A stretch of 64,000 bases of DNA, from positions 77,125-141,124 of the forward strand of contig JBAXSP010000002.1 in NCBI GenBank assembly GCA_037130655.1, written 5' to 3'. Source of the stretch: a bacterium (GTDB lineage: Bacteria; Patescibacteriota; Minisyncoccia; Phycocordibacterales; UBA9973). Of the stretch, positions 5,335 through 57,033 are shown one piece after another. Position numbers and translations under genes: made by a program. The notes below the pieces were generated by a model. That model searched no databases. It was given only the letters and a program-made list of their open reading frames with translations, and was not told the origin of the DNA. How positions within the stretch are numbered: the stretch's first letter is position 1; every line of letters starts with the position of its first letter.

Positions 5335-5715
5335 ATGGCAAAAACAAAGAAGACAACAGGAGCAAATCCACTCAAGATCATTGGCGTCGGAGTCGGTATC
5401 GCAGCACTATCACTCACCAGCTATCTATTGCTCGGAGAACACAGCAAGAAGAATCGCAAAGCAGTCAAAGCATGGGCATTCAAAATGAAAGCCGAAGTTG
5501 CTGAAAAATTGGAACACATGCAAGAAGTTACTCAACCAGTGTATGAAAAAGTCGTCCATGAAGTAGCGGACAAATACAAGAAGCTCAAAAACATTGATGC
5601 AGAAGAAGTTGAAACAGAATTGAACCATTTGAAAAAGGAATGGCACAAGCTGACAAAAAGTTCAAAATCCCCTGTTTCGAAAAAGAAGGTAGTGAAGAAA
5701 GTTTCAAAGAAATAA
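5335..5715 (+). CDS. hypothetical membrane-anchored lysine-rich protein
   Basis: N-terminal TM (IIGVGVGIAALSLTSYLLL), followed by a charged helical region and a K-rich tail. A terminator follows. Confidence 0.5.
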   Translation: MAKTKKTTGANPLKIIGVGVGIAALSLTSYLLLGEHSKKNRKAVKAWAFKMKAEVAEKLEHMQEVTQPVYEKVVHEVADKYKKLKNIDAEEVETELNHLKKEWHKLTKSSKSPVSKKKVVKKVSKK

Positions 5716-5723
5716 AATGCAAA

Positions 5724-5750
5724 ATAAAAACCGACAGTGTCGGTTTTTAT
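5724..5750 (+). terminator. rho-independent terminator
   Basis: Hairpin ccgacagtgtcgg followed by ttttt. Confidence 0.6.
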
Positions 5751-5921
5751 GTTGTTATTTCAAACACTTTTTGATCAGAGACAAGCTAGATTGAAGAAAT
5801 TGGTTTATCTAAATGGTCAGCGAGGCTGTGAATAATGATGGAAATGGTTTTTTCCACATGAGATTGACTATAAATAAAGGTATGTGGTATACTAAAACCA
5901 ATCAGAAGAAACCCTGACAAG

Positions 5922-13291: not shown

Positions 13292-13309
13292 AGATTTATT
13301 ATATCAAAC

Positions 13310-13347
13310 AAAAGCGGCGGAACCCGAAGGGTTCCGCCGCTTTTGTT
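13310..13347 (-). terminator. rho-independent terminator (CCGAAGG-loop type)
   Basis: aaaagcggcggaacccgaagggttccgccgctttt. Confidence 0.7.
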
Positions 13348-13349
13348 TA

Positions 13350-14636
13350 TTACTTTTCTTCGTCTGTTTTTTCTTTTGCAGCTTTAGCGGATGCAACTCC
13401 TGCAACATAACCCGTCGTCCAACAAAGTTGTAACGAGAATCCTCCAGATGGACGATTGATATGAAGGAGGTCTCCAGTCACATATAGATTTTTTACAATC
13501 TTTGATTGCATTGTTTTGGTGTCGATTTCAGTCATTGGTACACCACCATCAGCAACCACTGCACGATCAAATCCCATGAGTCCGGTGATAGTGACTGGTA
13601 ATGCTTTCAACAAATTGGCAATTTGTTTGCGTTCTTCTTTGGTGATACTGTGCACTTTTTTGTCGATATCAATACCATGACACAATGAAAGAATTGCTTC
13701 ACTCGTACCTTCGGGAGTCACTTGGTCAAACATGTTTTTGAGCATTTTATTTTTGTTTGTATCAAATGCTTTGATGAGTTTGTCTTCGAGTGCACCAAGA
13801 TCAGTATCAGGATATGCATCGATTGTTGCTGTCACCGCACCTTCATGAAGCAAGTTTTCTACTTTTTTTGCACTATTTAAAATGAGTGGACCAGAGAGCC
13901 CAAAGTGTGTGAACAAAATTTTGCCCAACTTTTTGAATGACTTCACTCCGTTTACATAAAACGTAATTCGCATAAAAGAGAGACTCACCCCAGAGAGTGA
14001 TTTGATCCATTCATCTGACACAGCGAGCGGCACGATGCTTGGTGTGGGTGGTGTGACACTATGACCGAGCCGAGCAAGCCATTTGAATCCGTCACCAGTT
14101 GAACCAGTTTCTGGATGTGATTGCCCGCCAGTTGCGAGAATATATTTTTCTGCAGTATATGTTCCCTTCTTGGTCAAAATAGAATGCACTTGGCCGTCTT
14201 TGGTTGGCTCAATTGCAGTCACTTGGCAATCAGTGTAAATACTCACGTCATACTTGATGAGTAGTTTTTCAAGTGTGCGAAATACATCGAGCGCGCGTTC
14301 AGACGCAGGAAATGCACGTTTACGTTCTTGTACAACAAGCGGTAGTCCATTTGATTCAAAAAACTCAAAGGTATCTTTCACTCCAAATTGTGAAAACGCA
14401 GAATGCAAAAATGGCGCACCATCGCCATAGTTCGCTAGCAGTTTTCTTGTGTCATATTCGGCATTGGTAATATTGCATCGTCCACCGCCGGTAATCTTCA
14501 GTTTCTCACCGAGGTTTTTGTTCTTTTCAAGAATCAATACTTTGGCACCGTTTTGCGCAGCAAAAATACCAGCAAGCATTCCTGATGCTCCTCCGCCAAT
14601 AATAATTACATCAAAGTGTTGACTCTTTTTACTCAT
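13350..14636 (-). CDS. BaiN/HI0933-like FAD-dependent flavoprotein
   Basis: DVIIIGGGASGMLAG Rossmann motif plus GGGRCNITN, diagnostic of the HI0933/YhiN family. Confidence 0.85.
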   Translation of the reverse strand: MSKKSQHFDVIIIGGGASGMLAGIFAAQNGAKVLILEKNKNLGEKLKITGGGRCNITNAEYDTRKLLANYGDGAPFLHSAFSQFGVKDTFEFFESNGLPLVVQERKRAFPASERALDVFRTLEKLLIKYDVSIYTDCQVTAIEPTKDGQVHSILTKKGTYTAEKYILATGGQSHPETGSTGDGFKWLARLGHSVTPPTPSIVPLAVSDEWIKSLSGVSLSFMRITFYVNGVKSFKKLGKILFTHFGLSGPLILNSAKKVENLLHEGAVTATIDAYPDTDLGALEDKLIKAFDTNKNKMLKNMFDQVTPEGTSEAILSLCHGIDIDKKVHSITKEERKQIANLLKALPVTITGLMGFDRAVVADGGVPMTEIDTKTMQSKIVKNLYVTGDLLHINRPSGGFSLQLCWTTGYVAGVASAKAAKEKTDEEK

Positions 14637-14771
14637 AAAACGTTATTTAAACATGAAACCAAAGAATCGATTTACTTCGCTTTTTCTTTCTTCGGTTTCT
14701 TTGTTTCTTTTCTGCGACTGTTGTTGCCTTTTGCCATATGGAGTGATTATAACACAAATAATCGCAATTAT

Positions 14772-20601: not shown

Positions 20602-20635
20602 TTGAAATAAAAAAATATTTGATTATTTTATAATA

Positions 20636-20668
20636 AAAGAGCGAAACCCGAAGGGTTTCGCTCTTTTG
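20636..20668. terminator. bidirectional terminator (CCGAAGG-loop type)
   Basis: aaaagagcgaaacccgaagggtttcgctctttt. Confidence 0.7.
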
Positions 20669-20676
20669 AATATTAT

Positions 20677-21905: not shown

Positions 21906-22298
21906 TTATTCCGGTTGCTTATATTGTGAAAGTCCAAGAATATTCCCTTCAGAATCTTTGAACCATGCAAGGAAACCGTATTCCCCATTTTCTCCGAGTG
22001 CTGTTTTGCCACGAACGATTGTTCCGCCATTTACTTCAATTTTTTGAAGCGTCGCATCGATATCTTCTGTTTGCATATAAAACATCGGATGAGGCATTTC
22101 AGGATCTCTTTTACTCGAACCACCATTGATAAATCCTGGTTCAGTCGGTTGCATTTTTTCATTCACTGGGCCAGTCTGCCAACTTGTATATTTCATTGCC
22201 TCCCATTCAAATGGTTTCCAATCAAATACTTCTTGATAAAATTTGTTCGCCCGTTCCTTGTCATCCCAAGGAAATTCAAAATGGATTACTTTGTTCAT
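21906..22298 (-). CDS. VOC (glyoxalase/bleomycin-resistance) family protein
   Basis: ~130-aa size and pattern (HFEFP ... GGT ... GNILGL). Confidence 0.6.
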   Translation of the reverse strand: MNKVIHFEFPWDDKERANKFYQEVFDWKPFEWEAMKYTSWQTGPVNEKMQPTEPGFINGGSSKRDPEMPHPMFYMQTEDIDATLQKIEVNGGTIVRGKTALGENGEYGFLAWFKDSEGNILGLSQYKQPE

Positions 22299-22387
22299 AT
22301 AGAGTGATTATAACATCAAATGAATTTGAGAAGGAATATTTTAATTTAAATGACAATTAAGGAATTCTTTTAGATTAAATGCTTAAT

Positions 22388-24481
22388 TTACCACTTTAGA
22401 GCAATTTCTTTAAAAGCATTTAAAACCAATATTTTCCCTTCTTTGTTAAAATATTTATGTTTTATTGGACCAGTAGGTTTTCCGGTTGATCTTGTACGAG
22501 CGTGAGATAATTCACTTTCAAGTCTTTTATCATGAATACTTTTTGCCATTGCAAAAATACAAGGATACTTCCTCGCAAAGGGACTTCTATTACTACTTAT
22601 TGAACCTCCAATATTTCCAAGAATATGATTACCTATTGTAGGATCATGAAGAAACAGCGAGTTAAGCACTAAATCATTAAATACATCCATATAATTTACC
22701 CACGCGGTGATATTTATTGCTGCCTCCTTTCTACAATTAAAGGCTAGTGTGCAGGCTTGTTTGTAATTAGATCCAAAGATTGTTTTCCAGTCTATGGTTG
22801 TAATACTTTGCCCTAACCATTTATTGAAATGTATTTCAATAGCACACCAACTCGCTCCAGCTGGCATTCTACTTATTAAGCCTGTTTCTTTTAGAATTGC
22901 AGCTGCTCTTAAGTTTATTTTTTTCTTTTGCCCAGTTAGAGCAATATTACGTTTTACCATTATGACTGCGGCGGAACAAGCAGTATCATTTGAATCATCT
23001 CTAATTTTTTCATTTAGTAATTGTGATAAAAAATTTGGAGCAATATTACCATTATCAAGAGACTGGACTAGAGAGGATCTTGCGTACCACTCTTTTGCCC
23101 CAAGGGCGAACCGCATCTGTTTTTCTGTATTTATCAAATTATTCCTTACAACCGGACGACCTATAGCAACATGTAAAACAATGTCATCACCAAGAACATT
23201 TGGGCGCCACTCTTTCTTTAATAACTCTTGAACTCGTGCGACTTGTCCCGATCTAACCCTTCCATCTAAGGTTTCAAAAAGAGCTGCTGTAATAGCAGAG
23301 TAAACAGGCTTAGTTATAATTTCATTAATTATTAAATTAACAACACTATCTGGTAAAAAATCATATCTCTGAAAATATTTAAGTGTCGTTTCAAAATTAG
23401 ATGGATTTTCCTTAAATAAACGCCATACACGACTGTTTATTTTAGAAGACGGTATTGCATGAGCTAAAAGATACTTAAAACGTGTTTGATTACTTATTTT
23501 ATAACCTTTAGTTAAAGCAATAATTCTTTTTTGTAATTTATCCTGATTAACAAACTTCCACTTAATGGCTGATTCAGTTGGATTACTTACTGATTTTAAT
23601 TCCTCTTCAATATTTTTTACCTCATGAATTTCTATCTTACTACTCTGAGGAAATAGACCGATATTTTTACTAAGCCTATCAAATTGTATAAGCATTAGTC
23701 GTAATTCTTTCTCCGAAGATGCAAATAGTCTTATATCATCAACATAGCGCATGTAACGCATTTGAGGAGGATTACCATATTTAACATCGAAATACTTTAA
23801 AACAACTTCTGACAGTAAGCCTGAAGCAAGTGGCCCCTGAGGTATTCCGTGATTATGATAAATTTGTGATGACTGATTTCCTGTCCACTTACTTAGACAA
23901 GAAATTAATATATCGATAAATTCATCATCGCATTTTATTTCCTTTAAAAAATGACGAAGAACCTTATGATCAATACTGTCATAACATGCGGTTAGATCAA
24001 AACTTGCGCTATATGTTAGACCATTATTAAATGCATCTCTAGCGGCATCATTAAATTTCTTATATCCATCTGACCATTTTCTATAAAACCAAACACTGCT
24101 TTTACCAGCATAGAGGTTACCGAAATTCTTTAAATAATAATTTGATTTTATTCCAGGAATAACAACAAGGTGTTCTGCGATTATATTTACCATAGCCTGA
24201 TAAACGATTTGATCCTCAACTGTTAGTAGTGTATAACCACGAAGAATACCTGAAGATTTTGGAATAAAAATTTTACATCCATGACTAGGTTCATAAGTCT
24301 TAGATTTAATTTGGTTTGATAAATCATCTAATATATAATCTTCTATTATTGAATATTCAGAATAAAGTTCTCGAAAATAATCTTTATACCTTCTATCCGG
24401 ATTACTTTTTATCCATCTCCACGCTCTTTTAAGGTTGTCTTTATCGAAAACTTCGTTCATTGTTGGTATTTTTCTTGGCAT
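22388..24481 (-). CDS. reverse transcriptase, UG/Abi-like single-gene type with a large alpha-helical C-terminal domain
   Basis: RT motifs 1 (IPKSSGILRGYTL), 3 (SFDLTACYDSIDH), 4 (GIPQGPLASGLLSEV), 5 (YMRYVDDIRLFA) and 6/7 (GLFPQSSKIEI), followed by ~380 aa of non-RT sequence. The ORF-track start at 24592 reads through repeat B. The Met at 24481 (MPRKIPTMNEVF) is the more likely start. Confidence 0.8.
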   Translation of the reverse strand: MPRKIPTMNEVFDKDNLKRAWRWIKSNPDRRYKDYFRELYSEYSIIEDYILDDLSNQIKSKTYEPSHGCKIFIPKSSGILRGYTLLTVEDQIVYQAMVNIIAEHLVVIPGIKSNYYLKNFGNLYAGKSSVWFYRKWSDGYKKFNDAARDAFNNGLTYSASFDLTACYDSIDHKVLRHFLKEIKCDDEFIDILISCLSKWTGNQSSQIYHNHGIPQGPLASGLLSEVVLKYFDVKYGNPPQMRYMRYVDDIRLFASSEKELRLMLIQFDRLSKNIGLFPQSSKIEIHEVKNIEEELKSVSNPTESAIKWKFVNQDKLQKRIIALTKGYKISNQTRFKYLLAHAIPSSKINSRVWRLFKENPSNFETTLKYFQRYDFLPDSVVNLIINEIITKPVYSAITAALFETLDGRVRSGQVARVQELLKKEWRPNVLGDDIVLHVAIGRPVVRNNLINTEKQMRFALGAKEWYARSSLVQSLDNGNIAPNFLSQLLNEKIRDDSNDTACSAAVIMVKRNIALTGQKKKINLRAAAILKETGLISRMPAGASWCAIEIHFNKWLGQSITTIDWKTIFGSNYKQACTLAFNCRKEAAINITAWVNYMDVFNDLVLNSLFLHDPTIGNHILGNIGGSISSNRSPFARKYPCIFAMAKSIHDKRLESELSHARTRSTGKPTGPIKHKYFNKEGKILVLNAFKEIALKW

Positions 24482-24545
24482 AGATTTTTTATATCTTAAG
24501 TAAAACATATAATATACTTTAGATATCAATCTGACAAATAAGAAA

Positions 24546-24672
24546 TCTCTCCTTACAAAGGGAGGTATACCTTTTGGATATATTTTTCGCAAAGCTCAAA
24601 TCTACCTCAAAAGCTTTTCGAATCCGTCCTCCTGTTTTGTTGCAACAAAACAGTTGCGGAAGTTCCCCAGCA
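24546..24672 (+). repeat. family-1 structured repeat, copy B (antisense to the RT and tRNA-Gln, ends in a tRNA-Gln 3'-end mimic)
   Basis: SL1 ctccTTACAaagggag, core tataccttttggatatatttttcgc...ctcaaatctacctcaaaag, then ttcgaatccgtcctc, hairpin ctgttttgttgcaacaaaacag, and agttccccagca (identical to the tRNA-Gln acceptor 3' strand). Confidence 0.75.
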
Positions 24673-24720
24673 AATGAAAAAATACCCAAATTGGGTATTT
24701 TTTCATTTGCTGGGGAACTA
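24661..24720. repeat. 60-nt perfect inverted repeat enclosing the 3' end of tRNA-Gln
   Basis: agttccccagcaaatgaaaaaataccc / gggtattttttcatttgctggggaact. No U-tract follows on either strand. Confidence 0.85.
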
Positions 24721-24780
24721 GGATTCGAACCTAGATAGTCGGAACCAAAATCCGAAGTCCTACCATTAGACGATTCCCCA
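24710..24780 (-). tRNA. tRNA-Gln (UUG)
   Basis: Hand-folded cloverleaf: acceptor TGGGGAA/TTCCCCA, anticodon stem TCGGA/TCCGA with loop TTTTGGT, T-arm CTAGG-TTCGAAT-CCTAG, discriminator G. CCA is not encoded. Confidence 0.75.
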
Positions 24781-33625: not shown

Positions 33626-35926
33626 ATGTCAAAGAAACTACTAATCGTTGAGTCACCTTCAAAAGCCAAAACTATCGAGAAATATCTCGATGGCGCATAT
33701 ACCGTGCGTGCTTCTGTCGGACACATTCGCGATCTTCCAAAATCAAACAAAAAAGCTATCGATATTCCCGGTGGCTTTATTCCGTCATACGAAATCTCAA
33801 AAGGCAAAGAAAAAGTCGTTGACGAACTGCAATCACTCGGAGAAAAAGCAACAGAAATCTTACTCGCAACTGACCCGGACCGCGAAGGAGAAGCTATTTC
33901 TTGGCACCTCCAAGAATTACTCAAGGCTGACAAAAAAATCAAAGCACCAATCAAACGTGTGACTTTCCACGAAATCACCAAAGAAGCTGTTATCGAAGCA
34001 CTGAAACATCCGCGTGATATTGATGACAACTTGGTCAAAGCTCAAGAAGCTCGTCGCGTGCTCGACCGTTTGGTTGGTTATGATTTGTCAGGTTTGATCT
34101 GGAAAAAAGTTCGTTATGGACTTTCTGCTGGACGTGTACAATCCCCTGCGCTTCGTATTCTTTGTGAACGCGAACGCGAAATCAAAGCATTCATTCCAGA
34201 AACCTATTGGGTATTGTCAGGACTATTTGAAACAGCCAAGAAAGTGCAAATTAAACTAGCTTGTGAAGAAGAGCCTCGTGACCAAACAGCAGTACAAAAA
34301 ATACTCGAGCTTGGAAATGCGAATCAATGGTTTGTCACTGAACTAAAGACGAGTGAACAAAAGCGTTCACCTCGCGCACCGTTTACTACTTCGACATTAC
34401 AACAAACAGCTTCAACTCGTTTGGCTTTTTCTCCATCTCGCACAATGCAAATTGCACAGAAATTGTACGAGGCTGGACATATCACCTATATGCGTACTGA
34501 CTCGACAACGCTTTCAGAAACATCTATCGCGAGTATCAAAAGTGTTATCGAAAAACAATACGGAAAAGAAATGGTAGAACTCCGTACGTACAAAACAAAA
34601 TCAAAAAATGCTCAAGAAGCTCACGAAGCGATTCGTCCAACTCATCCCGAAAAAGCATCTGCAGGAACGACTGATGAACAAAAAGCATTGTACAAATTGA
34701 TTTGGGAACGAACCGTCTCATCACAAATGATTGATGCACAACTTTTGAAAACCAAAATTTCTGCAAACATCAAACAAGGTGGTATTCCAAATTTCTCTGC
34801 CAATGGTTCACGTTTGATCAAAGCTGGATGGCTAGCTTGTGAAAGTGCTGCTCGTGGTGAAGATGTAGAACTCCCTGAAGTAAAAGAGGGTGAAGAATTG
34901 GGCGTCATCGAACTTGGTTCACTAGAAAAACAAACAGAACCACCAAACAGATATTCTGAAGCTGGTCTCGTCAAAGAACTCGAAGCTCGTGGCATTGGAC
35001 GTCCTTCAACCTATGCGTCTATTATTCGTACCATCGAAGAACGTGGGTACGTGGAGAAAATCAATCGTTCCTTGAAGCCAACAGATACTGGTGAAGTAGT
35101 TTCTTCGTTCCTTGAAGAAAACTTCATGGAATATATCGGAGATGATTTCACTGCAGAAATGGAAAACGAGCTCGATGAAATTGCCGATGGAACACGTGGC
35201 TATACAAAAACATTGAAAGACTTTTATGGTCCGTTCACCAAACACATCAAAGAAAAAGATAAAATGGATAAGCTGACGACACTCGGTGTTGCTGATCCAA
35301 AATACAAATGTCCAAAATGTGGCAAAGACATGGTCATCAAATTGGGACGTGGAGGCAAATTCCTCTCTTGTGCAACATATCCAGATTGTGACGGGGCTTT
35401 GACAATCGACGGCGTTGAAATCAAAAAAGATGAACCAATTGCAATCGACCCAGAATCAGGACTTCCAATTTTTGTACTCACTGGACGATTTGGTCCATAT
35501 GTCCAAATTGGTGAAGTGGTCAAAAAGAAAACAGCGAAGAAAAAAGTAGCTAAAAAAACAACGAAAAAGAAAAAAAGTGAAACTGTATCTGACGAAGTGA
35601 TTGAAGAAAAAGCTGAAGAAGTTGTAAGTCCTAGAAATGGACGACGTGCAAGTATTCCAAAAGAAATTGATCCGAGTACTGTCACCGAAGAGATGGCGCT
35701 CAAATATTTGTCACTTCCTCGTGTGCTCGGGCAACACGAAGATGGAGTAGATGTGATTGCCAACGTCGGACGGTTTGGTCCATATGTCGGACACGAACGA
35801 AATTTCCGTTCAATCAAAAAACCACTCGATGTATACACGATCACACTCGACGAAGCACTCCATCTACTGGCACAAGAAAAAAAGCCCCGCGGTTTTCAGA
35901 AAAAGAAGCCGAATGGTGAGAAGTGA
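33626..35926 (+). CDS. topA: DNA topoisomerase I
   Basis: TOPRIM LLIVESPSKAKTIEKYL, active-site region, and C-terminal Zn ribbons (CPKCGKDM...CATYPDC). Confidence 0.9.
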   Translation: MSKKLLIVESPSKAKTIEKYLDGAYTVRASVGHIRDLPKSNKKAIDIPGGFIPSYEISKGKEKVVDELQSLGEKATEILLATDPDREGEAISWHLQELLKADKKIKAPIKRVTFHEITKEAVIEALKHPRDIDDNLVKAQEARRVLDRLVGYDLSGLIWKKVRYGLSAGRVQSPALRILCEREREIKAFIPETYWVLSGLFETAKKVQIKLACEEEPRDQTAVQKILELGNANQWFVTELKTSEQKRSPRAPFTTSTLQQTASTRLAFSPSRTMQIAQKLYEAGHITYMRTDSTTLSETSIASIKSVIEKQYGKEMVELRTYKTKSKNAQEAHEAIRPTHPEKASAGTTDEQKALYKLIWERTVSSQMIDAQLLKTKISANIKQGGIPNFSANGSRLIKAGWLACESAARGEDVELPEVKEGEELGVIELGSLEKQTEPPNRYSEAGLVKELEARGIGRPSTYASIIRTIEERGYVEKINRSLKPTDTGEVVSSFLEENFMEYIGDDFTAEMENELDEIADGTRGYTKTLKDFYGPFTKHIKEKDKMDKLTTLGVADPKYKCPKCGKDMVIKLGRGGKFLSCATYPDCDGALTIDGVEIKKDEPIAIDPESGLPIFVLTGRFGPYVQIGEVVKKKTAKKKVAKKTTKKKKSETVSDEVIEEKAEEVVSPRNGRRASIPKEIDPSTVTEEMALKYLSLPRVLGQHEDGVDVIANVGRFGPYVGHERNFRSIKKPLDVYTITLDEALHLLAQEKKPRGFQKKKPNGEK

Positions 35927-36016
35927 TGGGATCACTTCGCAAGACCTTTTGAGATAGATTTCGAGCCATGCGAAGAAATATATCCAAAAGGTGTACTGAA
36001 ACTGTAAGTTTTTCAG
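35914..36016 (-). repeat. family-1 structured repeat, copy D
   Basis: Minus-strand reading: ctgaaaaacTTACAgtttcag, gtacaccttttggatatatttcttcg...ctcgaaatctatctcaaaaggtcttgcg, then hairpin gaagtgatcccatcacttc. Overlaps the topA stop. Confidence 0.8.
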
Positions 36017-37421: not shown

Positions 37422-37502
37422 GCCGGAGTGGCGGAATGGTAGACGCGCTCGACTCAAAATCGAGTTTCGAAAGAGGTGGAGGTTCGAGTCCTCTCTCCGG
37501 CA
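37422..37502 (+). tRNA. tRNA-Leu (CAA)
   Basis: Acceptor GCCGGAG/CTCCGGC, anticodon stem CTCGA/TCGAG with loop CTCAAAA, long variable arm, T-loop TTCGAGT. Confidence 0.8.
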
Positions 37503-37534
37503 CAAAAAAAAATCACCGTAAGGTGATTTTTTGA

Positions 37535-37669
37535 TGCCGGAGAGAGCGCAAGTATTTTGTTAGACAAAATACGAGCACGGACTCGAAAAGCTTTTGTGAT
37601 AGATTTCAAGTTATACGAAGAAATATATCCAAAAGGTGTACTGCGCCTGTAAGGCGAGAGTCCTCTCCG
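37535..37669 (-). repeat. family-1 structured repeat, copy E (antisense to tRNA-Leu-CAA, ends in a tRNA-Leu 3'-end mimic)
   Basis: Minus-strand reading: gcgccTTACAggcgc, gtacaccttttggatatatttcttcg...cttgaaatctatcacaaaag, then ttcgagtccgtgctc, hairpin gtattttgtctaacaaaatac, and ctctctccggca (identical to the tRNA-Leu acceptor 3' end). Confidence 0.75.
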
Positions 37670-38173: not shown

Positions 38174-39121
38174 GTGTCAATAATGCAAAATGAATCTATA
38201 GATAAACCCAAACTCATCATCATAACCGGCCCGACTGCCACTGGTAAGTCGGATTTTGCCGTGCGTGTCGCCCTTCAACTTCGTTCAGGGCAAGCTCAAA
38301 TAAATGCTGAAATAATCTCAGCCGACTCACGCCAAGTCTACAAAGGACTTGATATTGGTAGTGGTAAAATCACCGAAACAGAGATGCAAGGTGTTCCCCA
38401 TCATCTACTCGATATCACTGGTCCACAAAATGTCGTTTCTGTTGATCAATACAAACGTTTAACACACAAGAAAATCAAAGAAATCACTGAACGAGGAAAT
38501 GTACCTATCATATGCGGAGGCACCGGATTTTATATTGATGCAGTGACCAAAGGAATGTCATTTCCAGAAGTTCCACCGAATGAAGAACTCCGTACAGAAC
38601 TCGAACAAAAAACAACCGAAGAATTGTTCGCACAAGTTGCATCACTCGACAGCGCTCGCACAAAAACAATTGATGCCAAAAATCGCGTCAGACTGATCCG
38701 TGCTATCGAAATTGCAACAGCACTTGGCCACGTTCCTGAAATCAAATCAGCACATCCTTATGACACCTTATTTATCGGACTTGATTTACCAGATGAAGTA
38801 TTGAAAGAGAAAATCAGTATTCGCCTATTCGCGCGAATTAGTCCAATGTTAGAGGAAATTAAAAACTTAAACGAAAACGGGTTGTCTTGGAAACGGATGA
38901 TTGCACTTGGTCTCGAATACCGCTATGGTGCAATGTGTGTCAAAGAAAAAATTTCTCAAGAAGAAATGATTTCAAAACTCCAAACTGAAATCTGGAAATA
39001 CGCCAAGCGTCAACGAACATGGTTCAAACGAAATAAAAAGATTGTATGGATTGACCCGAGAGAAACTAATACTGAAGTAATAGAAAAAATTAAAAGTTTC
39101 TTAGAAAAATCTAACTTTTAA
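38174..39121 (+). CDS. miaA: tRNA dimethylallyltransferase
   Basis: P-loop ITGPTATGKS ... ISADSRQVYKGLDIG. Confidence 0.9.
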   Translation: MSIMQNESIDKPKLIIITGPTATGKSDFAVRVALQLRSGQAQINAEIISADSRQVYKGLDIGSGKITETEMQGVPHHLLDITGPQNVVSVDQYKRLTHKKIKEITERGNVPIICGGTGFYIDAVTKGMSFPEVPPNEELRTELEQKTTEELFAQVASLDSARTKTIDAKNRVRLIRAIEIATALGHVPEIKSAHPYDTLFIGLDLPDEVLKEKISIRLFARISPMLEEIKNLNENGLSWKRMIALGLEYRYGAMCVKEKISQEEMISKLQTEIWKYAKRQRTWFKRNKKIVWIDPRETNTEVIEKIKSFLEKSNF

Positions 39122-40673: not shown

Positions 40674-41348
40674 TTAATTCAACAAAAATCGCAATGTTGA
40701 AACGAGACGAATCTTTTTGTATTCAGGAGATCCTGGGTCTTTGTCAGTGATATCAAATACCCCTTGGTTTCCACGATTGACTCCCCCGACAGTTGTTCCA
40801 GCGTTTTGTGCAAATGAAGTGGCTGTTTCTTTGGCATTCTTGATTGCTTCGGCCAACATTTCTGGCTTCACACTATTTAGATCAGAGAATTCAAAAGAAA
40901 TATAATTTTGATTGAGCACTACTCCTTTCTTCACCAAAAGCAATGTTTCGTTTGAAGCACTTTTTGCCAAATCAACTTTCTTTGTATACACCGCGACTTG
41001 GTTGGTTGAGTTGTATCGGAACGCTGCGTCCTTGTAAGTATCTTGATAGATGTTTACCGGAGCCACATTGATTTCACTTGCTTCAAATCCTTTTTCAGTC
41101 AAGAAACTCTTGATTGCAGTAATATTCTTTTCTGTATCGGCATAGAGTTGATCAATACTATTTGATTTTACCTCAAATGTCAGCGTCCAAATAGCCGTAT
41201 CAGCTTTGACGATTTTTTCTGATAAACCTTTTACTTCAACATACGAACCTTGTTTTGAGAAATCTTTCGAAGCGAAAAATACCGCTCCAGCGAATAATAA
41301 AATTCCTGCACTAATAATCCAAATTGCGTTATTTTTTAGTTTTTCCAT
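40674..41348 (-). CDS. SIMPL/DUF541 periplasmic protein
   Basis: Signal anchor plus a SIMPL-like pattern (WTLTFEVK ... RYNSTNQVAV). Confidence 0.6.
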   Translation of the reverse strand: MEKLKNNAIWIISAGILLFAGAVFFASKDFSKQGSYVEVKGLSEKIVKADTAIWTLTFEVKSNSIDQLYADTEKNITAIKSFLTEKGFEASEINVAPVNIYQDTYKDAAFRYNSTNQVAVYTKKVDLAKSASNETLLLVKKGVVLNQNYISFEFSDLNSVKPEMLAEAIKNAKETATSFAQNAGTTVGGVNRGNQGVFDITDKDPGSPEYKKIRLVSTLRFLLN

Positions 41349-41378
41349 ATGGACTTATTATAGCATTTAAATGCAATG

Positions 41379-41397
41379 TGCGGGCGATGGAGGAATC
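41379..41397. repeat. 19-nt direct repeat of the tRNA-Trp 3' end (second copy at 41575-41593, within the gene)
   Basis: tgcgggcgatggaggaatc is exact at both positions. It covers the T-loop through acceptor plus CA of tRNA-Trp. Confidence 0.85.
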
Positions 41398-41574
41398 TCG
41401 ACTAACAGACTCAGAATCGGTCACGAATATTTTTCACCAGAAAAATTTCTCGACCCCACCTCGCCTATTTTTCTGGTGAAAAATTATGGCTCCGGCTTTC
41501 GATTCCTCTCGCAAGTAAAATTGTTTACTTGCTCATCACCCACAAAAAAAACAGCTTTCGCTGTCTTTTTTTTT
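41398..41574 (+). repeat. family-2 structured repeat, copy 1 (between the tRNA-Trp 3'-end direct repeats)
   Basis: cagaatcggtcacgaatatttttcaccagaaaaat...ctatttttctggtgaaaaattatgg...ctttcgattcctc, hairpin gcaagtaaaattgtttacttgc, then tcatcacccaca (a tRNA-Trp acceptor mimic). ~85% identical to the copy at 48908-49078. Confidence 0.75.
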
Positions 41575-41576
41575 TG

Positions 41577-41647
41577 CGGGCGATGGAGGAATCGAACCCC
41601 CACCAATGGTTTTGGAGACCATTGTTCTACCACTAAACTAATCGCCC
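41577..41647 (-). tRNA. tRNA-Trp (CCA)
   Basis: Acceptor GGGCGAT/ATCGCCC, anticodon stem ATGGT/ACCAT with loop CTCCAAA, T-loop TTCGATT. Confidence 0.8.
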
Positions 41648-41703
41648 GTGTTTGTTGATTCTAACAAAAAAAGCCCGTTTGGGCCAGTTTTTGTTAGAAA
41701 AAA

Positions 41704-41862
41704 TTATTTCTTAGCTTCTTTGAAAACAACGTGCTTACGTAGTTTTTTAGAGTATTTCTTCATTTCCAACTTTTCAGGATTTTGCTTCTTGTTCTTGAAA
41801 GTATAAATAATCTCCTTACTTGTTTTGTTGGTCAATTTTATTAAATGGTCTTGCTTTGACAT
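41704..41862 (-). CDS. rpmG: 50S ribosomal protein L33 (52 aa; missed by the ORF track)
   Basis: Hand translation: MSKQDHLIKLTNKTSKEIIYTFKNKKQNPEKLEMKKYSKKLRKHVVFKEAKK. The L33 pattern (K..NP.RLE..KY...R.H.....K) is present. RBS gaggac upstream. Classic tRNA-Trp/rpmG linkage. Confidence 0.7.
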   Translation of the reverse strand: MSKQDHLIKLTNKTSKEIIYTFKNKKQNPEKLEMKKYSKKLRKHVVFKEAKK

Positions 41863-41916
41863 AGTCCTCATACTATACAGAAAATGGGTCTTTTTTGCAA
41901 GTTTTTTGAGTTATAG

Positions 41917-41941
41917 GAAAATCCCGCAAAAGCGGGATTTT
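41917..41941. terminator. bidirectional terminator hairpin
   Basis: aaaatcccgcaaaagcgggatttt. Confidence 0.6.
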
Positions 41942-41950
41942 CTTATGTTT

Positions 41951-41970
41951 TGTGCGCCGGGTTGGATTCG
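41951..41970. repeat. 20-nt direct repeat of the tRNA-Tyr 3' end (second copy at 42131-42150, within the gene)
   Basis: tgtgcgccgggttggattcg is exact at both positions. Confidence 0.85.
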
Positions 41971-42055
41971 GTTCTTACAGAACCCTGTACCCTAATTGGC
42001 TATTTTATTCGTTGAACTCATAAAATAGCTCAATCAGGCTTCGAATCCTGCTCGC
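41971..42055 (+). repeat. family-1 structured repeat, divergent copy F (between the tRNA-Tyr 3'-end direct repeats)
   Basis: SL1 ggttcTTACAgaacc, ctgtaccc, imperfect hairpin ttggctattttat...ataaaatagctcaa with compensatory changes relative to the consensus, then caggcttcgaatcctgctcgc. Confidence 0.65.
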
Positions 42056-42132
42056 ATTTTTATCAAATAAAAATACTCCGCAACCCGTCTCTCAAAAATA
42101 AAAAGCCTGTTTTCACAAGCTTTTTATTTATG

Positions 42133-42215
42133 TGCGCCGGGTTGGATTCGAACCAACGAAGCCCAAGGGCGACAGATTTACAGTCTGTTGTAATTGACCA
42201 CTCTACCACCGACGC
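42133..42215 (-). tRNA. tRNA-Tyr (GUA)
   Basis: Acceptor GCGTCGG/CCGGCGC, anticodon loop CTGTAAA, long variable arm, T-loop TTCGAAT. Confidence 0.8.
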
Positions 42216-42256
42216 AACAGTAGTACTATACAGTATTTATCTTTTTTTTTCAATAT

Positions 42257-42277
42257 AAAATCCCCTTTCGGGGATTT
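42257..42277. terminator. bidirectional terminator
   Basis: aaaatcccctttcggggatttt. Confidence 0.7.
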
Positions 42278-42279
42278 TA

Positions 42280-44970
42280 TTATGCCTTTGCTTTTTTGTT
42301 TACTTTCACCGGACTTTTCTTTTTACCTTTCTTAGTCTCAACAAAGAGTTCATTGTTCTTGACCGACACTTTGACTTCTTCCCCTGCGGTGACCCCATCC
42401 GCAATGATGTGAGTCGCCACTGGATTCAAAATCTTGGTCTGAATCAATCTATTCAATGGACGTGCACCGTAGTGCGGATCGTAGCCATCTTTTGCGAGTA
42501 GCTCATATGCATCATCAGACACAAGCAATTCGATTCCTTTGTCTTTCAATCGCTTTGCAACTTCACCAATTCGCAACTTCACAATTTCTTTGATTGCATC
42601 TTTTGACAAGATATCAAACACAACGATTTCATCAAGACGATTCAAGAATTCTGGACGAAAATGATCTTTGAGTGCGTCGAGTACTTTGTCTTTGGTTTGT
42701 TCATATTCTTTCTTTTCACTCGTTGCACCGAAACCAAGACTTTCCATTTTTTGAATAAATTGTGAACCAATGTTTGAAGTGAGAATGATCACCGCATTTT
42801 TGAAATTCACGACACGTCCTTTTGAATCAGTTAGACGGCCTTCATCGAGCACTTGGAGCAAGGTGTTGAATACTTCAGGATGAGCTTTTTCAACTTCATC
42901 AAACAGCACGACAGAATACGGACGGTGACGAATCGCTTCGGTCAATTGCCCACTTTCATCGTGACCAACATAACCAGGAGGTGAACCGATCAATTTTGAC
43001 GCACTGTGACGTTCCATGTATTCACTCATATCAACACGAATCAATGCTTTTTCATCATTGAACATAAATGACGCGAGCGCTTTGGTAAGCTCAGTCTTCC
43101 CGACTCCAGTTGGACCGAGGAAAATAAATGAACCGATTGGACGATTTGGATCCGCAATTCCTGCACGAGAACGACGAATCACTTGGGCAACCTTTTCAAT
43201 TGCTTCATCTTGACCTTGAACACGAGCTTTGAGTTCTGTTTCCATCCGAGCCAATTTGATTCGTTCTTCTTCAAGCATGCGAGTTACTGGAATTCCGGTC
43301 CATCGTGCCACCACATCAGCGATATCTTCAGCGGTAATTTCTTCACGCAAGATACGACGAGATTTTTGCAATTTTTTCAAACGCTCCATTTTTTCATGCA
43401 GTGATTTTTCAGCAGTTGGAATTTTGCCATAACGAATCTCAGCAGCAAGTGCGAGATCAGCTTTCATTTCAGCATTTTCAGCTTCGAGACGAAGCACTTC
43501 CAATTCTTTCTTGAGTGCACGAATATCCACCAAGACACTTTTTTCATTTTGCCATTTGAGTTCGAGCTCTTTCGTCTTTTCTTTTGCATTAGCAATTTCA
43601 CGATCGATTTCTTTGATACGTGATTTTATTTCTTTAAATGCTTTTGTAGAAGCCATTTCATTTTCTTGATCTTTCGACAATGCTTCTTTTTCGATTTCCA
43701 GACGCATTATTTTACGATGTGCTTCTTCGAGTTGTACTGGCTTATTTTCAAGTGCCATTCGAAGTGATGAAGAGGCTTCGTCAATCAAGTCGATTGCTTT
43801 GTCTGGAAGATTTCGATTGGTGATGTAGCGAGTCGAAAGCTCAACAGCAGAAATAATCGCATCATCAGTAATACGTACCCCGTGGAACAATTCATATTTT
43901 TCTTTGAGTCCACGAAGGATCGCCACCGCATCTTCGGTACTTGGTTCTTCGACATAAACTGGTTGGAATCGTCGAGCAAGGGCTGGATCTTTTTCAATAT
44001 GTTTTTGATATTCTTTGATGGTTGTCGCACCAATTGCACGCAGTTCTCCACGAGCAAGTGCTGGCTTCAACATGTTTGAAGCATCGAGTGATCCTTCAGA
44101 AGAACCCGCACCGACGATTGTGTGAATTTCATCAATAAACAAAATCATTCGTCCATCAGCCTTTTCGATTTCTTTGATGATACCCTTCAAACGTTCTTCA
44201 AATTCTCCACGATATTTTGTACCAGCAATAAGCAGTCCAATATCAAGTGAGATAACTTCTTTGTTTTTGAGCGATTCAGGCACATCGCCACGAGCAATAC
44301 GAATCGCCAATCCTTCAGCCACAGCAGTCTTCCCTGTTCCTGGTTCACCAATCAATATTGGATTGTTTTTGGTACGACGAGAAAGAATCTGCATAATACG
44401 AGCAATTTCTGTATCACGACCAATAACTGGATCAAGTTTGTCAGCCTTTGCAAGCTCTGTCAGATTGCGAGTGTATTTGGTAATCAAACGTTTCTTTGGG
44501 CCACTTGCTTCAAAGTTCGCATCATTGCGACTCTCAGCAATCATCGTACGAAACTGTGCGATATCGATTTTGAATTTCTCAAGCAAACTTTTTGCCGGAC
44601 CTTCTACTTCAAGCATTGCCAAAAAAAGATGTTCTGCACCAACAAATTCATCTTCGGTTGATTGCGCCATCTTCGGAGACACTTCAATCACCTGCGCCAT
44701 GTCAGGCGTCAAATACATTTGATATGACGGAGAGACCGTACTTTTGATTTCTGGTTCATCAAGTTCTTCAATAACAGAATCAGAAAGCAACAATGTATCT
44801 ACATTCATTGTTTCGAGAATCGCAACAGGCAAACTTTCTTCTTGAAATAAAATAGCGGTCAACAAATACAAACTACTGACGTGATTTTGCCCACGCTCAA
44901 TAGCAAGCTCGTGAGCTTTTTTGATGGCTTCTTTTGCTTTGGTTGTAAACTGATTGAATGATGGCATCAT
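42280..44970 (-). CDS. clpB: ATP-dependent chaperone ClpB
   Basis: Clp N-domain, two AAA+ modules ([15 protein letters not shown]; [15 protein letters not shown]) and a ~120-aa coiled-coil middle domain. Confidence 0.9.
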
Positions 44971-45066
44971 AATTATTATAAATTACGTAAATGATGCATT
45001 TCTTCGTTGAAATAACTAAAACCCTCGTCACTGTACAACTCGTACACTTCCTCGTATTTTAATCAT

Positions 45067-45166
45067 TCTCTTACAGAGACGGTACACCTTTTGGATATAT
45101 TTCTTCATTATACTCGAAATATATCTCAAAAGGTCTTGCGATTGTGTTTCAACACAATCTCACACC
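45067..45166 (+). repeat. family-1 structured repeat, copy C
   Basis: tctcTTACAgaga, ggtacaccttttggatatatttcttca...ctcgaaatatatctcaaaaggtcttgcg, hairpin gattgtgtttcaacacaatc, then tcacacc. Confidence 0.8.
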
Positions 45167-45207
45167 TCGAACTGCATTCATTTACCTAATTTCTATTTGT
45201 TATATTT

Positions 45208-56691: not shown

Positions 56692-56734
56692 ATATAAAGT
56701 ATAGTCTATAAAGTCGAAAGTCGAAAGTTATAAA

Positions 56735-56768
56735 GTAAAAGAGCGAAAGGCTTCGCCTTTCGCTCTTT
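56735..56768. terminator. bidirectional terminator
   Basis: aaaagagcgaaaggcttcgcctttcgctcttttt. Confidence 0.7.
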
Positions 56769-57033
56769 TTATTTTTTATTTAGAATCATCTTTATTTATC
56801 TTACTAACGTAATTACACCAAGAACAAACAGTATATCCTAAAACGAAACTAATTATATAACCTATCAAAATTTTATTTTCCATATATTTTTATTAGAACT
56901 TATTTTAAAATTAGATTTCATTAAAAACTTCAGATACGAGGCGTCGAGGCGGAAAAATGTGAGACGTAGATGTGCTACGTTGAATGTTTTTCCGCCGAAG
57001 ACAACGAAGTAGCTGGAGGAATTTAATAAAATC

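Follow-up and report, generated by a model that had tools for sequence, protein, structure and literature searches.

Small folded elements behind the tRNA genes of Patescibacteria as a proposed superfamily of protein-less mobile DNA inserting at tRNA and tmRNA gene tails

The stretch of DNA analysed here (the window, 64,000 nt) carries eight tRNA genes called with ARAGORN, and six of them are followed by a folded element with an inserted length of about 180-200 bp. Nine copies were recognised in the window and assigned to two families: family 1 comprises the copies behind the genes for tRNA-Gln, tRNA-Leu-CAA, tRNA-Tyr and tRNA-Leu-TAA as well as three orphans, and family 2 the copies behind tRNA-Trp and tRNA-Cys. 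Six of the nine abut a tRNA, each on the tRNA 3' side, the same counts as in a first-pass annotation of this DNA; its statement that the elements encode nothing also holds, since no real ORF lies inside them (a 95-aa ORF at 41371-41658 overlaps the tRNA). Read on the tRNA strand, each locus begins with the tRNA, which ends in a segment we call X, and continues with a hairpin, the segments A5, H1 and T', a core, and finally X2, a distal direct copy of X. In the window, the hairpin is terminator-like, with a T-run, and separates each tRNA from its element. A5 and T' are the complement of X and are often split by the conserved hairpin H1, A5 being often missing; the core is a three-way junction of 67-116 nt that occurs in at least two or three unrelated families with common boundaries. 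The neighbours of the window elements include L33, SIMPL and ClpB.

The tRNA-Trp(CCA) gene lies at 41576-41647 on the minus strand (ARAGORN; Rfam tRNA, 71 bits), and X, the proximal copy of the repeat, is formed by its terminal 19 nt (mid T-loop to CA). The DNA inserted behind it, a family-2 element (41398-41575, minus; covariance model R1, 59.4 bits on the minus strand), is made of a hairpin/terminator (41545-41575), A5 (41533-41544), H1 (41511-41532), T' with GAAAG (41496-41510), the family-2 core (41419-41502) and a spacer (41398-41418) with the relic GATTCTGAG; its predicted fold has an energy of -66.7 kcal/mol (z -6.7). X2 follows at 41379-41397 (minus) and is succeeded by the native flank, the SIMPL promoter. 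The ribosomal protein L33 gene (41704-41871, minus; Pfam PF00471, E 4.7e-12), between the Trp and Tyr loci, is context and not part of an element. The tRNA-Tyr(GTA) gene occupies 42132-42215 (minus; ARAGORN, Rfam tRNA model), its last 20 nt being X, and its family-1 element (41971-42131, minus) contains a hairpin/terminator (42095-42130), a partly decayed A5 (42076-42094), H1 (42054-42076), T' with GAAGCC (42037-42053) and a core that ends in the hairpin GGTTC-TGTAA-GAACC (41970-41984); X2 (41951-41970, minus) is followed by the native trailer and its terminator.

The other four loci follow the same plan. Behind tRNA-Gln (24709-24780), the family-1 element (24530-24708, minus) has its A5 at 24661-24672, H1 at 24626-24660, T' at 24613-24625 and TGTAA hairpin at 24547-24565, and X2 is badly decayed. 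Behind tRNA-Leu-CAA (37422-37503), the family-1 element (37504-37669, plus) shows A5 at 37535-37546, H1 at 37547-37576, T' at 37577-37591, the TGTAA hairpin at 37644-37656 and X2 at 37658-37669. The family-2 element behind tRNA-Cys (48836-48908) extends over 48909-49077 on the plus strand (model R1, 65.7 bits), with A5 at 48937-48948, H1 at 48949-48970, T' at 48971-48985, a core reaching 49065 and X2 at 49066-49077. The Trp copy holds 7 nt, GATTCTG, that are the start of the X of Cys (GATTCTGCC), beside a core about 85% like the Cys core, as estimated by eye from both sequences. Behind tRNA-Leu-TAA (49088-49171), the family-1 element (49172-49365, plus) consists of A5 (49203-49212), H1 (49213-49241), T' (49242-49254), a hairpin (49308-49320) and a decayed X2 (49321-49330), after which lies the relic of an older family-2 3' end (TCGTGACC and CGAGCCCC, 49348-49365). 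The three orphan family-1 copies are found upstream of msrB with no adjoining tRNA (821-914, minus), upstream of clpB (45070-45163, minus) and at the 3' end of topA (35920-36010, plus, or 35941-36008 in a narrower delimitation).

The direct repeats noted in the first-pass annotation are both exact: 19 nt for Trp (41379-41397 and 41575-41593, 100%) and 20 nt for Tyr (41951-41970 and 42131-42150), the latter within a 23-nt repeat at 96%. The duplicated segment of 19-20 bp starts halfway through the T-loop (C56/G57) and stops some 2 bases beyond the discriminator, and because it spans the T-loop to the gene end the tRNA stays intact, the X2 copy retaining the native trailer. A long duplication is present in every fresh copy; its boundary is mostly fixed and its length varies, up to the 56 bp seen in one locus (L014), where 36 nt of trailer are included. 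The repeats carry the genomic CA or the trailer and not the mature CCA, which rules out priming by mature tRNA in the manner of a retroviral PBS. The window copies are insertions bounded by a T-loop-anchored target duplication.

Exact-sequence matching of the L33 and SIMPL proteins of the window gave no match. Near relatives, found by a homologue search with the SIMPL protein (94-97% identity), provided the corresponding empty sites, a check that the first-pass annotation had asked for. In the relative at 97% (L128), an identical tRNA-Trp is joined straight to the flank found beyond X2 in the window, which has 196 extra nt between the repeats. Alignment showed that the 180-nt Tyr insertion is missing from this relative and from the one at 94% (L130), and the native trailer AAACATAA with its hairpin, found after X2 of Tyr in the window, is the trailer behind tRNA-Tyr in both. 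In L130, the miaA start codon stands 2 nt after tRNA-Leu-CAA with no element between them. The elements thus display the presence/absence polymorphism with precise empty sites that marks mobile DNA, and the Trp, Tyr and Leu-CAA copies are therefore probably recent insertions, although loss in the relatives by recombination between the repeats would yield the same empty site.

Turnover is also visible beyond these three sites. A relative with a 98% ClpB (L002) lacks the orphan upstream of clpB, a GIY-YIG gene filling that spacer, and its tRNA-Cys is followed by a different core subfamily with the same A5/H1. Among relatives with about 75% ClpB identity, a given tRNA may be occupied by family 2, by family 1 or by nothing, and in one contig (L004) 4 of 6 tRNAs are occupied. 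Signs of repeated insertion include tandem arrays, decayed copies and relics pushed distally, and two loci (L116 and L022) present cargo-carrying versions, the cargo in L116 being an APH-family kinase and an unknown protein. A single element lineage with generic flanks was found at tRNA-Lys (CTT), tRNA-Arg (TCT), tRNA-Trp and tmRNA, each time with a local repeat, and it keeps discrete, conserved ends at these differing genes. The repeats coincide with flipped tRNA genes between close relatives.

That the flanks track the neighbouring tRNA, as the first-pass annotation had proposed, was borne out over 97 related elements, in which uninterrupted pairing between the stretch ahead of the core and the cognate tRNA averages 9.2 nt, versus 4.7 nt with non-cognate tRNAs. 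T' tracks the tRNA at 143 positions, versus 28 at which it tracks X2. In many loci, the inverted segment X' is contiguous up to a TCGA junction. Near-perfect palindromes that include the acceptor 3' strand and are centred on the hairpin were also found, as were small junction duplications such as TCGA-GATTCC. The idea that T' copies the 5' strand of the T-stem and the T-loop was ruled out, since TTCGATT loops give a T' of AATCGAA, their complement. In the predicted fold, an acceptor-like helix together with H1 closes the full Trp copy.

The elements had earlier been placed on the strand opposite to the tRNA, an orientation that family 2 rules out by three measures: 124 of 124 copies are more stable on the tRNA-sense strand (by -9.8 kcal/mol on average), G.U pairs number 287 on this strand versus 75 on the other, and the covariance model matches both window copies on the tRNA strand. 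Read in the sense direction, the supposed antisense mimic of T-loop and acceptor is complementary to the 3' part of the tRNA (T' and A5). For family 1, the strand bias is weak (14 of 17). In the helices of family 2, 88.9-90.2% of cells are paired, versus 30-46% when the partners are slid; pairs with changes on both sides number 20 and 29; none of 500 shuffles reaches the observed values; and one G.U pair is invariant in 29 of 29 copies of one set and 116 of 117 of a larger one. With its covarying helices, strand asymmetry and invariant unpaired bases, the family-2 core is a structured single strand, and the fold is constrained in the sense polarity. A fold of single-stranded DNA would explain the G.T bias equally well, and with a terminator-like hairpin between each tRNA of the window and its element the fold is only putatively transcribed. 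A hammerhead-type junction was rejected by eye, the junction strands (GAAA / GG / none) being a misfit, and on the Rfam negatives.

A pattern scan retrieved at least 119 family-2 cores, distributed over Patescibacteria and Elusimicrobia. Of the regex matches, 99 of 129 have a same-strand tRNA no more than 150-160 nt upstream, as do 91 of 121 covariance-model matches, with four more after tmRNA; about 80% of family-2 cores follow a tRNA or tmRNA of the same strand at a distance of up to 160 nt. At the element sites, Rfam 15 returned only tRNAs, both at the gathering threshold and at E<=5, and no curated RNA family (T-box, tmRNA, Y RNA, self-cleaving ribozymes, the omega RNAs in Rfam 15) scored at or near the gathering threshold. 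A phage origin was rejected on 0 matches among 2.9 million viral contigs. Literature searches found no description of such elements, the nearest being the group I introns in the anticodon loops of Patescibacteria tRNAs (PMC13011429). In the searches made, the elements match no described element or RNA family.

We propose, with a probability of roughly 0.55, that the elements form an undescribed superfamily of small protein-less mobile elements inserting at the tails of tRNA and tmRNA genes. We infer the insertion chemistry, having linked no transposase, integrase or RT to them. The folded strand would probably be RNA, transcribed by read-through from the promoter of the tRNA, with single-stranded DNA as a possible alternative, and a trans-acting enzyme would recognise this strand. 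The segment complementary to the tRNA may help to find the T-loop/acceptor target, as pairing does for a group II intron or an IS110 bridge RNA; staggered or target-primed insertion would then duplicate X, and later X2 would decay as T' stays matched to the conserved tRNA. Simple target duplication alone leaves the match of A5 and T' to each new tRNA unaccounted for. More tentatively, the folded strand could be the targeting device of a new nucleic-acid-guided insertion system, with a split guide (T' and A5) that is complementary to tRNA and tmRNA genes from the T-loop to the acceptor, a trans-acting and possibly housekeeping enzyme, and a 19-20-bp duplication that rebuilds the tRNA tail; such a system would be programmable, safe for the tRNA, and unrelated to integrases, group II introns, IS110 or CASTs.

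Another reading, which we find rather unlikely, is that the fold serves the host as a cis-acting or released small RNA, using an acceptor/T helix (A5:A3 and T':X2) that RNase P/Z would cut or that would govern tRNA termination, processing or quality control, and that it is gained and lost like an accessory gene. The structure is strongly conserved, its invariant unpaired bases extending over many Patescibacteria classes and Elusimicrobia, which would suit such a role, as would the high occupancy (6/8 tRNAs in the window, 4/6 in L004), a complementarity better kept toward the real tRNA than toward X2, and the acceptor-like closure of the Trp copy. However, near relatives do without an element at three tRNAs, core families are interchangeable at one tRNA, A5 is often absent, and the decayed copies, tandem piles, cargo and orphans away from tRNAs are typical of selfish DNA; the same turnover, decay, tandem arrays and cargo count against the tRNA 3'-flank processing module considered in the first-pass annotation.

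That annotation had also offered miniature integrative elements targeting tRNA 3' ends, an idea whose core is supported by the empty sites. Its classical form, in which a tyrosine or serine integrase crosses over in the T-loop, the repeats are attL and attR and the element (or its relic) brings its own tRNA 3' end, is doubtful and in our view unlikely. As at classical tRNA and tmRNA integration sites, for which Williams reportedly formulated a sublocation rule in 2002, the repeat begins in the T-loop and mostly stops where the gene stops; tmRNA is also used, and cargo-carrying cases exist. However, one lineage sits at Lys, Arg, Trp and tmRNA with local repeats, which under Campbell integration would give chimeric dead tRNAs; the repeat can extend 36 nt into a non-functional trailer; att sites do not feature a strand-specific fold of this kind, with its invariant G.U; and viral contigs gave no match. 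No integrase was found inside or beside any copy examined, repeats more than 400 nt apart enclosed only cargo (kinase, unknowns, tRNAs) and no recombinase of an autonomous parent, and no related autonomous IS with a transposase was seen in the 0.98 Mb of loci examined.

Template switching during replication, which requires no dedicated enzyme, appears quite improbable. Here, fold-back priming at the terminator hairpin and microhomology at the palindromic TTCGAA would produce an X - X' - X inverted triplication, the cores being copied between loci; the palindromes centred on the hairpin, the contiguous X', the variable repeat length and the junction duplications described above would all fit. 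The discrete element ends kept at different tRNAs and the mostly fixed repeat boundary speak against it, as does a fold under strong purifying selection, which is not expected of passive by-products. Finally, some 60 nt beyond the Gln element an RT gene (22388-24478) begins on the strand of that element; it belongs to UG19-large (E 2.9e-167), a defence-associated RT class (PMC9226505). It is near only 1 of the 9 copies, not in the constant adjacency of a retron or other RT-linked ncRNA, and neither a tRNA nor an element lies close to its four Patescibacteria homologues (L001, L125, L126, L127), one of which adjoins a type I restriction system. Retro-copying by this RT, primed or templated on tRNA 3' ends as once suggested, is highly improbable given its class, its element-free homologues, repeats ending in genomic CA instead of CCA, and no second copy of the Gln X found beyond the RT.

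Patescibacteria have some of the smallest bacterial genomes, yet most of their tRNA genes tolerate a folded insertion behind them. Should insertion be guided by the tRNA-complementary segment, this would represent a compact, gene-sparing targeting principle of possible use in genome engineering, and a new way for selfish DNA to exploit the T-loop, the most conserved sequence in biology. If instead the fold serves the host, it would amount to a widespread class of RNA, so far unannotated, that is linked with the expression of tRNAs in a large share of bacterial diversity. The repeats of the elements break assemblies, as in contig L002, which ends inside tRNA-Tyr, and are thus relevant to genome reconstruction from metagenomes.

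Several known systems share some of these features. Like phages, ICEs and CIME-type relics, the elements insert in the 3' part of a tRNA or tmRNA gene with a repeat from T-loop to end, identical to the tRNA 3' segment, leave the gene intact and form tandem relics. Unlike them, they measure only 180-200 bp without an integrase gene, one lineage occupies many tRNAs instead of having one att specificity, the repeat is local and sometimes includes the trailer, and they possess a conserved strand-specific fold with a built-in target complement. With MITEs, REP/BIME and the PATEs of IS200/IS605, they have in common that they are short, non-coding, hairpin-rich, multi-copy and strain-variable, with single-strand folds that an enzyme could read. 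However, MITEs have constant terminal inverted repeats and duplications of 2-10 bp, whereas here the inverted segments (X' and X2) copy the target and differ at each locus, and the duplication is 19-20 bp and up to 56 bp; IS200/IS605 elements, also with hairpins (subterminal ones), insert 3' of a 4-5-nt target and make no duplication; and neither MITEs nor PATEs show the strict tRNA-tail targeting seen here, where no parent IS was found. The RNA-guided elements (group II introns with EBS/IBS, IS110 with its bridge RNA, tRNA-homing CASTs with their crRNAs) likewise carry a structure with bases complementary to the insertion site, and class C group II introns also land behind terminators, as the present elements lie behind terminator-like hairpins. 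They differ from all of these by the long target duplication and by the lack of any ribozyme or recombinase match, Rfam being negative; group II introns are reported absent from Patescibacteria (PMC13011429). Group I introns, frequent in Patescibacteria (PMC13011429), are also structured RNAs lodged in tRNA-type genes, in tRNA anticodon loops or tmRNA T-loops, the latter a known group I site. Unlike them, the core is not a group I fold and lies behind a complete tRNA without interrupting it. Kojima and Jurka are said to have described in 2013 the Dada DNA transposons, which insert at a set position in genes for small RNAs, those for tRNAs among them, and keep the gene intact; these are eukaryotic and protein-coding with short target duplications, unlike the protein-less elements described here with their long, T-loop-anchored ones.

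The window belongs to a Patescibacteria (CPR) genome. It carries eight tRNA genes (ARAGORN and Rfam), and an insertion element stands behind six of them, Gln, Leu-CAA, Trp, Tyr, Cys and Leu-TAA, the same six for which the first-pass annotation had claimed an element on the 3' side; none lies behind Leu-TAG or Lys-CTT. Its two exact direct repeats were also recovered, 41379-41397 being identical to 41575-41593 over 19 nt and 41951-41970 to 42131-42150 over 20 nt. Two families of conserved core occur in the window: there are seven family-1 copies, of which three have no tRNA beside them, and two family-2 copies. The L33 gene is located between the Tyr element and tRNA-Trp, and terminator-like hairpins are present between tRNAs and elements. 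Read on the tRNA strand, the order is the tRNA, a hairpin containing runs of A and T, A5, H1, T', the core and X2. A5 is complementary to the 3' strand of the acceptor and makes a long palindrome with the hairpin, H1 is a conserved hairpin, and T', which terminates in TCGAAAG, is complementary to the 3' strand of the T-stem together with the 3' half of the T-loop. X2 abuts the core directly and is a direct copy of the tRNA 3' segment (X), from C56/G57 to about 2 bases past the discriminator. The complete Trp copy folds up and closes on itself, X2 pairing through its acceptor part with A5 and through its T part with T'.

Several features accompany this anatomy. CCA is un-encoded in all eight window tRNA genes and in most of those in loci fetched from other genomes (L handles); in the same genes the discriminator is nearly always followed by CA(C/A), bases with which the left hairpin of the element often pairs. 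Many copies (e.g., L002 ~85-100, L004 ~13745-13760, L007, L060 and L065) share the apical-loop motif GAGCGAAGCGA / GCGAAGC, which tips hairpins in both core families as well as left hairpins; in DNA, the GCGAAGC heptamer is known for forming a mini-hairpin of unusual stability. In L036 (~5640-5900), one tRNA-Leu is followed by family 2 and, in tandem with it, a third core type (TCGAAAGGATTTTCC...GTCGGCGATTCC) whose H1/T'/X boundaries are the same.

The mobility of these elements was addressed in near relatives located via the proteins flanking them, and empty sites were present at three tRNAs. In L128 (SIMPL 97% identical), a tRNA-Trp identical to that of the window is joined at once to the sequence which in the window follows X2; between its two copies of the repeat, the window has 196 bases more. 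At Tyr, a 180-base insertion is absent from both L130 (94%) and L128, where the native trailer and terminator are those found behind X2 in the window, and in L130 the miaA start codon lies two bases downstream of tRNA-Leu-CAA. Insertion thus leaves the tRNA intact and comes with a duplication anchored in the T-loop. The elements also turn over rapidly. The Cys element of L002 (ClpB 98%) shares A5 and H1 apart from one compensatory change, and has a core from another subfamily; in more distant relatives, tRNA-Cys is followed by a family-1 core (L003) or by nothing (L004). tRNA-Lys-CTT, empty in the window, carries family 2 in L004, where decayed copies are piled behind Tyr and Trp; at Leu-TAA in the window, a relic of a family-2 end lies behind the family-1 copy. 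Tandem arrays exist in L118, L012 and L036, a 56-nt duplication including 36 nt of trailer in L014, and 1-1.5 kb of cargo between tRNA and T'-core-X2 in L116 and L022. One lineage, whose left hairpin stays the same and whose T' is generic, occupies four targets (Lys, Arg, Trp and tmRNA) and has a local repeat at each. In the Trp copy, a core ~85% like the Cys core (estimated by eye) is directly followed by GATTCTG, with which the Cys X begins; this suggests a jump from a Cys-type donor. Upstream of clpB, L002 has a GIY-YIG gene in place of the orphan family-1 copy; this 84-aa gene (L002 3960-4245, counterpart of the clpB-aminotransferase spacer at window 44971-45207) is bracketed by the inverted repeat CCCCGTTAGAG / CTCTAACGGGG and looks like a separate small mobile cassette.

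A same-strand tRNA lies 150-160 nt or less upstream of 99 of the 129 pattern matches listed and of 91 of the 121 covariance-model matches, tmRNA precedes four further model matches, and the remaining ones are mostly tandem copies or at locus edges; 19 amino-acid specificities are represented. The claim that the flanks track the neighboring tRNA held, T' pairing contiguously over a mean of 9.2 nt with its own tRNA versus 4.7 nt with others. In most cases the repeat starts 19 nt before the annotated tRNA end, and about half of the repeats match perfectly as far as the end of the gene. Where X2 has drifted, T' pairs with the tRNA at 143 positions versus 28 with X2; X2 therefore decays as a by-product, and T' stays tied to the conserved tRNA.

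Which strand is selected was decided by the fold. A family-2 core pattern scan of one genome per species gave at least 119 stretches, and among the matches listed the tRNA-sense strand folded more stably in 124 of 124 distinct copies (mean gain -9.8 kcal/mol; 287 versus 75 G.U pairs). An alignment of 29 family-2 sequences supports a three-way junction made of P1 (the T':X2 helix, then a GAAA junction), Pa (a 3-bp stem, a GGA/GA internal loop and a GC-rich stem, then GG) and Pb (16 bp with a bulged A). In this alignment 88.9% of cells are paired versus 36-46% with slid partners, and 20 pairs change on both sides, values reached by no shuffle. The covariance model built from it, run on 0.79 Mb, found 121 copies with 90.2% pairing, double changes in 29 of 32 pairs and one G.U pair retained by 116 of the 117 sequences; in the window it matched the Cys and Trp copies only, both on the tRNA strand. 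The elements had been called antisense, which is wrong because fold stability and model matches favor the tRNA strand, as does the G.U bias. The bias points to selection acting on a single, sense-polarity strand, which RNA and single-stranded DNA would fit equally. In family 1, the stems covary (the TGTAA hairpin and the long arm) and the strand bias is weak. The tRNA-distant family-1 copies at 821-914 and 45070-45163 and the Gln copy (24540-24625) lie upstream of, and in sense with, msrB, clpB and the reverse transcriptase (RT) gene, respectively, and may act as outward promoters or leaders.

Of the three proposed origins, miniature integrative elements at tRNA 3' ends came closest, and the empty sites agree with it. 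Copying by the RT encoded directly behind tRNA-Gln and its element (22388-24478, minus strand, 696 aa) fails as an explanation. This protein, whose C-terminal domain is of no assigned kind, is a UG19-large RT (PADLOC E 2.9e-167), a class-1 defence-associated group (PMC9226505), and is predicted to act in anti-phage defence; it has homologues spread widely over many phyla and relatives carrying the labels Minisyncoccia or Paceibacterota, and none of four Patescibacteria homologues has a tRNA or an element close by. Copying from a CCA-ended tRNA is rejected, the repeats matching the gene sequence with no CCA end.

Other rearrangements and repeats were observed. tRNA genes with their own promoters are flipped singly between close relatives: tRNA-Tyr (window 42132-42215) is inverted in L128 (988-1071) and L004 (13855-13938) relative to the window and L130, and tRNA-Trp (window 41576-41647) in L130 (1675-1746). 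The clpB-type terminator has two inverted copies in the window (41913-41946 and 42247-42283). A contig end falls within tRNA-Tyr in L002 (7000-7048), and element repeats probably break short-read assemblies at such loci. A promoter-leader box, TG(T/C)TATAAT(C/A)A(C/G)TC(T/C)ATATG on the minus strand, is repeated at 14728-14754, 22289-22315 and 41339-41365; its extended -10 stands ~8 nt before ATG, which suggests very short leaders. A 32-nt repeat (91%) containing TATTCGCCTATTCGCGCGAATTAG has one intergenic copy and one within the miaA ORF (361-392 and 38810-38841), and long near-perfect palindromic terminators of type AAAAGAGCGAAACCCGAAGGGTTTCGCTCTTTT occur at 13302-13350, 20626-20674 and 56728-56776.

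The elements, with their conserved sense-strand fold and built-in complement of the target, form a real, widespread class of tRNA-tail insertions. A trans-acting enzyme would recognize the fold, targeting may be aided by T' and A5 pairing with the tRNA gene or its transcript, and a staggered or target-primed step would then generate the duplication. A5 and T' could come to match a new tRNA through lineage-specific homing and core recombination, fold-back copying at the hairpin, or correction inside the palindrome. The class is apparently undescribed so far: Rfam 15 gave no match to the elements even at E<=5, viral contigs gave none, and no paper on such tRNA-tail elements was found in the literature. 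The nearest published case concerns group I introns lodged in the anticodon loops of Patescibacteria tRNAs, in a paper that reports group II introns to be absent from the phylum (PMC13011429).
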